Of a stretch of 10,787 nt of DNA, positions 4,843-5,412 are shown piece after piece. This DNA comes from Escherichia coli. GTDB taxonomy: Bacteria; Pseudomonadota; Gammaproteobacteria; Enterobacterales; Enterobacteriaceae. The notes beneath the pieces were generated by a model. That model saw only the letters and a list, made by a program, of their open reading frames with translations, did not search any database and was not told the origin of the DNA. The position numbers were made by a program, and so were the translations under genes. The stretch is taken from assembly GCF_003334815.1 (NCBI RefSeq), contig NZ_QOWO01000060.1; one strand, written 5' to 3'. Numbering within the stretch: the first letter of the stretch is position 1; the number at the start of each line of letters is the position of its first letter.

Positions 4843-5412
4843 ATGACCTACAAATACAACCCCTTCTGGCAGCAACGTATTCGTGAGACGGTGCGGCACG
4901 CACTGAATGTTCATCCCCGCCTGACGGCATTGCGGGTTGACCTGCGTTTCCCGGATGTACCGGCAGCAACGGACGCAGCTGTGATATCCCGCTTCATCAA
5001 TGCCCTGAAAGCCCGAATCGACGCTTACCAGAAACGTAAGCATCGGGAAGGTAAACGCGTGCATCCCACAACCCTGCATTACGTCTGGGCCCGGGAGTTT
5101 GGGGAGTGCAAAGGTAAAAAACACTATCACCTGATGCTGCTGGTCAACCGGGATACCTGGTGTCGTGCCGGTGATTACCGCGCTCCGGGATCACTGGCCG
5201 GGATGATTAAACAGGCGTGGTGCAGTGCCCTGGGAGTGGATGTCGGGTGCCATGCCACGCTGGTGCATTTTCCGGCCTGGCCGGCGGTGTGGCTGGCGCG
5301 TAATGATGACACCGGCTTTCAGCAAGTGCTGGAACGTGCTGACTATCTGGCGAAGGAGCATACCAAAGTTCACTGCACCGGTGAGCGCAACTTTGGCTGC
5401 AGTCGTGGCTGA
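4843..5412 (+). CDS. YagK/YfjJ-family protein (inovirus Gp2-like; putative HUH-type replication-initiator relative)
   Basis: ATG 4843 with GGAG 8 nt upstream (the ORF track's 4807 start is a GTG with no SD). Product MTYKYNPFWQQRIRETVRHALNVHPRLTALRVDLRFPD...KKHYHLMLLVNRDTW... is the right size (189 aa) and shape for the YagK/YfjJ island proteins as I recall them, and contains an H-Y-H motif. TGA at 5410..5412. Confidence 0.7.
   Translation: MTYKYNPFWQQRIRETVRHALNVHPRLTALRVDLRFPDVPAATDAAVISRFINALKARIDAYQKRKHREGKRVHPTTLHYVWAREFGECKGKKHYHLMLLVNRDTWCRAGDYRAPGSLAGMIKQAWCSALGVDVGCHATLVHFPAWPAVWLARNDDTGFQQVLERADYLAKEHTKVHCTGERNFGCSRG

Follow-up and report, generated by a model that had tools for sequence, protein, structure and literature searches.

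What the proteins of the YagK/YfjJ family do for the genomic islands that carry them is the question raised by a stretch of 10,787 nucleotides of Escherichia coli DNA (assembly GCF_003334815.1, contig NZ_QOWO01000060.1), referred to here as the window. The window consists of CP4-44-type island DNA located between yeeA/tmaR and cobU, and its gene 4843-5412 (+ strand, ATG at 4843, stop codon at 5410-5412) encodes a 189-amino acid protein identical, with the same start, to RefSeq WP_000221529.1. Our analysis favors a small single-tyrosine Rep-class HUH endonuclease (U standing for a hydrophobic residue), which likely nicks excised islands of the AlpA/P4-integrase type for rolling-circle replication; we consider this the most probable of the readings weighed below. 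The gene and the motifs of its product are as follows.

4843..5412, + strand: coding sequence of a predicted stand-alone Rep-class HUH endonuclease domain of the YagK/YfjJ family, 189 amino acids (RefSeq 'inovirus Gp2 family protein')
4918..4947, + strand: first beta strand, residues 26-35, RLTALRVDLR, at the position of Rep motif I (conservation and model strand 26-35)
5095..5097, + strand: E85, invariant glutamate on the strand beside the HUH strand, probable third metal ligand (model strand 79-86)
5116..5148, + strand: KKHYHLMLLVN, HUH motif (5122-5130) followed by a hydrophobic strand and N102 (conservation; model strand 93-102)
5344..5367, + strand: Y168-L-A-K171...K175, YxxK motif III with the candidate catalytic tyrosine (conservation; near the end of helix 156-170)

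An earlier note on this DNA had recognized in KKHYHLMLLVN (residues 92-102; codons of H94 at 5122-5124, Y95 at 5125-5127 and H96 at 5128-5130) the histidine pair of HUH endonucleases, and had asked whether it is conserved across the family. Exhaustive searching of 1.84 billion cluster representatives with phmmer returned 697 relatives at E<=1e-3, and conservation was counted over the query and 115 full-length representatives of 50% identity clusters, about 33-52% identical to the query (n=116). Both H94 and H96 are present in 116/116, as are E85 and W126, and N102 is found in 115. The position between the two histidines is Tyr in 103 sequences and Phe in 13; because it tolerates Phe, Y95 is not the catalytic tyrosine. 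A better candidate stands further along the protein, in a YxxK motif conserved at Y168 (115/116), K171 (115/116) and K175 (113/116). In a second alignment of 113 sequences (A1), the only invariant columns are E85, H94, H96, W126, Y168 and K171. The first strand is also conserved (R31 in 109, D33 in 105 and L34 in 106 of the 116 sequences; R26, R31, D33 and L34 each at least 90%), and its R26...R31-V-D33-L34-R is in the right place for motif I but reads unlike the classical FLTLT/uuTu.

Y168-L-A-K171 lies 72 residues past H96, which is the order of Rep proteins, where the tyrosine comes after the HUH motif. The succession of a glutamate, His-U-His ligands and then YxxK supports, at the level of sequence, the assignment to single-tyrosine Rep-class HUH endonucleases, in which E85 would, by analogy with parvovirus and CRESS-virus Reps, probably act as the third metal ligand. 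Searches of Pfam agree: the protein matches YagK_YfjJ_C (PF11726, previously called 'Inovirus_Gp2') over its full length (E 9.2e-48, model positions 1-170 of 170), as do 113/113 homologues, and REP_ORF2-G2P (PF23343) in part (E 3.3e-5, residues 59-125, 43/99 model positions, spanning WxxE and the triad). In single scans of the same 113 homologues, 99 match REP_ORF2-G2P and a few match weakly Rep_1, RepSA, Phage_GPA or Helitron_like_N; PF05144 (Phage_CRI) is not among the Pfam matches listed for WP_000221529.1 or its homologues. The sole PHROGs match is family 25019, of unknown function. Scans of WP_000221529.1 and of the two zinc-ribbon proteins encoded downstream against NCBIfam and PADLOC gave no match, nor did PDB sequence searches with WP_000221529.1 as a single sequence or as a profile. 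The HUH/Rep label is thus already present in RefSeq and Pfam, and the reading, which is correct, was known at the level of annotation; PF11726 has earlier been used as a Rep model for Microviridae/Inoviridae (PMC7000223).

A structure prediction for an HUH fold and its catalytic tyrosine had also been proposed as a check. The very confident AlphaFold2 model built from A1 (mean predicted local distance difference test 95.8, predicted template modelling score 0.91) consists of helix 7-23, strand 26-35, helix 47-68, strands 79-86 and 93-102, helices 118-130 and 134-140, strand 148-152, helix 156-170 and strand 184-186. In this model the strand bearing E85 is followed directly by that of the HUH motif, which sits in the central antiparallel sheet of an alpha/beta fold, as in solved HUH nucleases; Y168 is found towards the end of the last long helix. 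The best structural matches are SIRV1 ORF119, parvovirus NS1/AAV Rep, RepB of pMV158, CRESS-virus Reps and microvirus initiators; the figures obtained are 8.1 for MVM NS1, 7.7 for B19 NS1, 7.3 for bocavirus NS1, 7.2 for Helraiser, 6.6 for RepB of pMV158, 6.5 for AAV5 Rep and 6.3 for TnpA-REP. Like WP_000221529.1, the single-tyrosine Reps have a glutamate on the strand next to that of the HUH motif, and their YxxK tyrosine belongs to a helix further along the chain. Foldseek against the PDB found no significant match (best MVM NS1, E 5.5e-3), which limits the weight of the fold. The predicted fold agrees with the HUH reading, for which the motifs provide the stronger evidence.

These results bear directly on the simplest objection, namely that the H-Y-H triad arose by chance in a protein of unrelated fold and function. 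Triplets of the H-x-H type are common in proteins and the earlier note rested on one sequence; however, more than 110 divergent homologues all keep the triad, along with its partner glutamate and Tyr-x-x-Lys, and both the cross-matches to Rep families of Pfam and the fold matches agree with HUH. We regard this objection as refuted and its residual probability as minute.

The name 'inovirus Gp2' calls for a separate comment. The label taken up in the earlier note, inovirus gpII-like, holds as a RefSeq name and as remote homology, but no filamentous-phage genome or prophage was found to carry the gene. A tblastn search of 50,697 phage records returned no filamentous phage, its sole match being an unverified 4.5-kb E. 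coli contig, and there are no phage morphogenesis genes near the gene, the neighbours of which are Ag43, RadC, antirestriction, Hha-like, zinc-ribbon and insertion sequence (IS) genes. Alignment of A1 with Pf3 ORF278 by hhalign (E 4.3e-4, probability only 34%) superposes WxxE, HxH and a Trp further on. As no filamentous phage was matched and the Pf3 ORF278 alignment is weak, the name reflects remote homology to filamentous-phage Reps, not a prophage. Pf3 ORF301 was also tried as the 'Gp2' and gave no match. Another class of HUH enzymes, the Y1 transposases (IS200/IS605 TnpA, RAYT), was rejected, since the flanking subterminal hairpins or REP sequences that would make the gene a discrete unit were not found.

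The closest named relatives, YagK (CP4-6) and YfjJ (CP4-57) of strain K-12, are about 36-40% identical, belong to the same PHROG 25019 and reside in islands of the same kind; they are 208 amino acids long versus 189 for the subfamily of WP_000221529.1, and the E. coli gene is followed by two zinc-ribbon genes, unlike yagK or yfjJ. Both are still counted in the E. coli 'y-ome' of genes of unknown function (PMC11551758), and our literature search found no paper on the function of any member of the family.

Plasmids, gene neighbours and the literature favor a rolling-circle initiator acting on the excised island. In PLSDB, a tblastn search with a Psychrobacter query found the family on many plasmids of 2.6-6 kb from Psychrobacter, Klebsiella and Pseudomonas, and 21/24 records with a match are typed as non-mobilizable. 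The most telling is pA41H1 (NZ_MN657093.1, L013; the numbers preceded by L designate the loci compared with the window), a circular Psychrobacter plasmid of 2,626 bp in which a 227-amino acid family member (361-1044) is the sole open reading frame (ORF) of at least 65 amino acids in six frames. This protein has the same motifs, in the form of FRFDIRI, QHYHLVLMV and RASYLAK, and its match to the A1 profile runs from end to end (E 6.5e-20); the plasmid also contains iteron-like repeats TAAGAGG-N5-ATAAGC at 45, 1172, 1425 and 1514. It is likely a minimal replicon of the YagK/YfjJ family, and unless it replicates without any protein of its own, the family protein is its initiator. A further plasmid with a Gp2-type gene, the 3.8-kb pPGSB8459 of Pseudomonas (L016), contains an unannotated 81-amino acid ORF (1340-1585, - strand) with many CxxC pairs, which recalls the zinc-ribbon partners found in islands.

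In the islands outside E. coli the gene keeps company with alpA, the product of which regulates excision in P4-type islands. It lies directly 3' of the gene in seven loci outside E. coli, from Klebsiella pneumoniae (plasmid), K. variicola, Rouxiella, Serratia, Cedecea, Pectobacterium and Enterobacter. In Salmonella two small ORFs separate the two genes, and in the E. coli lineage of the window alpA is not found directly 3' of the gene.

L011 9723-9962; L019 10717-10941; L020 10713-10946; L021 10723-10971: alpA, loci outside E. coli
L022 6726-6944; L023 6724-6939; L025 6723-6962: alpA, loci outside E. coli, continued

In CP4-57 of K-12 (L005 5986-8174) the order is intA-yfjH-alpA-yfjI-yfjJ, and YfjI (DUF3987) matches a PHROG 'DNA helicase' (E 5e-100). 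The predicted nuclease and helicase genes of this island therefore stand side by side, like a split Rep; in many viral Reps the two activities are joined in one protein. A 2025 PNAS paper describes the Pseudomonas islands I23, I44 and I55 as tyrosine integrase islands with defence cargo, of which intY, alpA, RadC, YqaJ and an 'inovirus Gp2-like protein' are likely core functions (PMC12595487). The enterobacterial loci display the same Gp2-AlpA-RadC association. The window island, unlike I23, I44 and I55, has no integrase or alpA, and the likeness is one of gene set.

The catalysis, substrate site and biological role that we infer for WP_000221529.1 would be the following. H94, H96 and E85, which belong to neighbouring beta strands, would bind a divalent metal ion, and Y168 would cleave a single DNA strand site-specifically, remaining attached to the 5' end. 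Because the protein lacks a helicase domain, a separate helicase would be needed, either from the host or from the island, such as YfjI beside YfjJ. The substrate would be the excised circular form of islands of the CP4-6, CP4-44 and CP4-57 kind, and rolling-circle replication started on it would give additional copies, concatemers or, for transfer, single strands. The enzyme would in most lineages be co-expressed with the excision activator AlpA.

Where such an enzyme might cut leads to the DNA upstream of the gene, in which the earlier note had suspected structural regulation of translation.

4815..4834, + strand: 8-bp hairpin overlapping the ribosome-binding site GGAG (4831-4834), which stands 8 nt 5' of the ATG (sequence and fold)
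4795..4842, + strand: block before the start codon with a T-run, ACGxxxxGG, TATGAAC and CGGAG (alignment A5, 11 loci)
4773..4801, + strand: remnant of a terminator-like hairpin with T-run, 24 nt shorter than in sibling copies (scan, alignment A3)
L011 8940-9000; L019-L021 about 9940-10000; L022-L025 about 5940-6000: conserved block in orthologues

In A5, some 50-60 nt before the ATG are conserved across eight genera, and the DNA further 5' is unrelated. Within the block, conservation falls on a T-run, ACGGC, CCGGTAATGGTTATGAAC, a partner arm and CGGAG, and it contains CCGGTAATGGTTATGAAC-like inverted repeats. The block occurs once per locus; a search for a second copy within 6-10 kb of each orthologue found only coincidental 3-mismatch matches inside a coding gene. 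It could serve as promoter and operator, as a translational operator or as the Rep nick site, and in many Rep genes an origin hairpin is found directly 5' of the gene. What the search for a nick site or origin provided is thus a candidate. A scan of 4300-5700 detected no sigma-70 promoter, and by eye only poor -35/-10 candidates are seen in the block. The inverted repeat 3' of the gene (5437-5447/5461-5471) was rejected as an origin, being conserved neither in Klebsiella nor in two E. coli copies.

The hairpin overlapping the ribosome-binding site is real: its stem (4815-4822/4826-4833, loop AAC) covers GGA of GGAG, that is 3/4 bases, and the surrounding 91-nt region is only marginally more stable than shuffled sequences (z -1.75). 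In most orthologues the CGG of the ribosome-binding site is paired within some hairpin, of differing sequence, with arms TCCGTATG/CATACGGA in the E. coli group and CCGGT/ACCGG, with or without GGTTAT/ATAACC, in the others; in Rouxiella and Serratia this hairpin is missing from the minimum-energy fold. No clear covariation was detected over the 11 loci, and conservation is mainly that of sequence. Translational control by the hairpin 4815-4833 is possible. A start-codon hairpin as a general feature of the family was rejected, since yfjJ has none and that of yagK is unrelated. The terminator-like element, for its part, is at chance level: a scan of the window gave 1 site versus 1.3 expected. A 24-nt deletion in the 4780 region (A3) falls within a long terminator-like hairpin that is intact in the L008 and L009 copies, with z -3.75 for the L009 version versus -2.0 for that of the window. 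No known RNA from Rfam was found in the window.

Two rival explanations concern the role. The main one holds that the protein is a Rep-like relaxase: it would nick an origin of transfer (oriT), present on small plasmids or on the excised island, to let a helper conjugative system transfer one strand, and the island would be an integrative mobilizable element. The islands carry antirestriction, RadC/JAB and DUF932 genes, typical of DNA entering cells in single-stranded form, and island modules with the gene occur on conjugative plasmids (41/68 plasmid matches). In pA22P3 and pMPC6-4K the Gp2-type gene adjoins a separate replication initiator, the place expected of a Mob gene; this keeps a mobilisation role open. 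A classical relaxase is nonetheless disfavored, because in MOB relaxases the tyrosine precedes the HUH-type metal site, the opposite of the HUH-then-Tyr order of WP_000221529.1, and because relaxases are absent from the structural matches of the model. We judge the relaxase explanation rather unlikely. The other explanation, to which we give slightly less credit still, holds that the protein has ceased to take part in the propagation of the element and is retained either to bind DNA and regulate island genes, or as a nuclease or decoy that acts on rolling-circle replicons entering the cell, for example filamentous phages or plasmids. It would account for a gene that is intact and under purifying selection in islands unable to excise, and for the defence genes found nearby, abpAB in CP4-57, OLD/UvrD-like and restriction-modification genes in Rouxiella, and AAA_15 in Pectobacterium and Enterobacter; the palindrome-like block before the gene could then be an autoregulatory operator. 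However, E85, H94, H96, Y168 and K171 are invariant, which pure DNA binding does not require, no PADLOC defence model matches, and the linkage to alpA and a helicase points to an excision/replication switch.

Returning to the rolling-circle initiator, we can extend it into a fuller scenario, offered tentatively and with less confidence as a whole than the enzymatic reading on which it builds. YagK/YfjJ proteins would be the missing replication/mobilisation nuclease of the common AlpA/P4-integrase islands. On induction AlpA would trigger excision, and the co-transcribed HUH enzyme would nick the palindrome-like block before its own gene. With a host or YfjI-type helicase, rolling-circle amplification would then produce concatemers to be packaged by helper phages.

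Whether the gene in the window is a relict, as the earlier note supposed, has two answers: the island is one and the gene is not. The gene is intact and under purifying selection, with a ratio of nonsynonymous to synonymous substitution (dN/dS) of 0.08-0.34 by the Nei-Gojobori method, for copies whose proteins differ by 2-10% and for an orthologue from Klebsiella that is 68% identical. Of 5,426 complete E. coli genomes, 3,725 (~69%) contain close copies, with DNA identity of about 85% or more; among these genomes the median is two copies and the maximum six. Window positions 4600-5600 are 100% identical in strain G5 and several other genomes. Gene copies 94-100% identical were also found on short contigs of a Paenibacillus assembly (L017) and of a Collinsella metagenome-assembled genome (L018), which are probably contamination. 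The island itself has no integrase, no alpA and many IS remnants, and, compared with its sibling in strain FAM21845, it has lost about 2.1 kb and about 4.5 kb in two deletions.

1684-1686: deletion 1, DUF932 gene fused to the middle of Ag43 (versus FAM21845)
3236-3241: deletion 2, from the Ag43 N-terminus to a helix-turn-helix regulator (versus FAM21845)
5980..6966, - strand: IS110-family transposase pseudogene between both zinc-ribbon genes, interrupting the module (ORFs 5980-6402 and 6469-6966)

The two deletions removed DUF905, the ends of Ag43, a YeeP-like GTPase, two hypothetical genes and most of the helix-turn-helix regulator gene. At the place of the pseudogene, L007 is annotated 'IS110 family transposase, internal stop', and IS110 is absent in L009. 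The mobility of the window island cannot be assumed, and since the integrase is lost and IS elements and deletions break the island, the enzyme encoded here would probably no longer serve the mobility of its own island.

The cysteine-rich genes that follow had been proposed to form, with the gene, the remains of a replication or mobilisation module.

5578..5970, + strand: zinc-ribbon protein 1, DUF7828 and Zn_ribbon_11, next gene 3' (Pfam E 8e-31 and 3e-9; RefSeq 'putative zinc ribbon protein')
7134..7544, + strand: zinc-ribbon protein 2, paralogue of protein 1 (32% identity, E 5e-16)

They are true paralogues, and their genes are adjacent or overlapping in the sibling island L009. Such genes adjoin the family gene in E. 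coli, Klebsiella, Serratia and Enterobacter but none stands next to the Rouxiella, Cedecea and Pectobacterium orthologues, yfjJ or yagK, which makes them optional partners of the gene.

Other genes of the window and of its relatives deserve mention. A 48-amino acid cysteine-rich ORF (CxxC...CxxC; 4518-4664, - strand) is divergent from gene 4843-5412; RefSeq treats it as a frameshifted hypothetical protein, and it is intact, at 201 bp, in L009. About 700 bp 5' of gene 4843-5412 lies a gene for a nucleoid-associated regulator of the Hha/YmoA family (3951-4127, + strand). After the module come ISL3-family transposase fragments, a gamma-glutamyltransferase fragment and a phosphotriesterase-related gene (8350-9447, 9548-9715 and 9859-10689), in agreement with pseudogene annotations of sibling genomes. 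Klebsiella and Enterobacter islands contain, a few genes further 3', a second and very divergent Gp2-type gene (L011 11151-11717; L025 8151-8717; profile E 5.5e-8, Pfam UCP030791 and weak YagK_YfjJ_C). Several islands also encode, 5' of the gene, a conserved protein of about 270-320 amino acids (L020 5828-6712, L024 2987-3805 and L025 888-1856, all - strand) with weak or faint Pfam matches to RepB-RCR_reg (PF10723), a family of regulators of rolling-circle plasmids. PHROG scans gave no match for the Serratia protein of this kind or for the E. coli hypothetical protein at the corresponding place (L007 18815-19732), the homology of which to the Serratia protein is unestablished.

The window itself is ordinary, a correctly annotated gene within a decayed island. 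The YagK/YfjJ family, however, is among the most widespread uncharacterised island genes of E. coli, and its invariant catalytic residues together with purifying selection turn a vague name into a testable hypothesis on the replication or movement of excised CP4-type islands and their Pseudomonas relatives. Small plasmids typed without known replication or mobilisation genes are suggested to use a YagK/YfjJ-family protein as initiator. If the fuller scenario were true, these 'cryptic prophages' would form a distinct class of rolling-circle satellites in enterobacteria and pseudomonads, and the small plasmids of Psychrobacter, Klebsiella and Pseudomonas would be free-living relatives of the islands.
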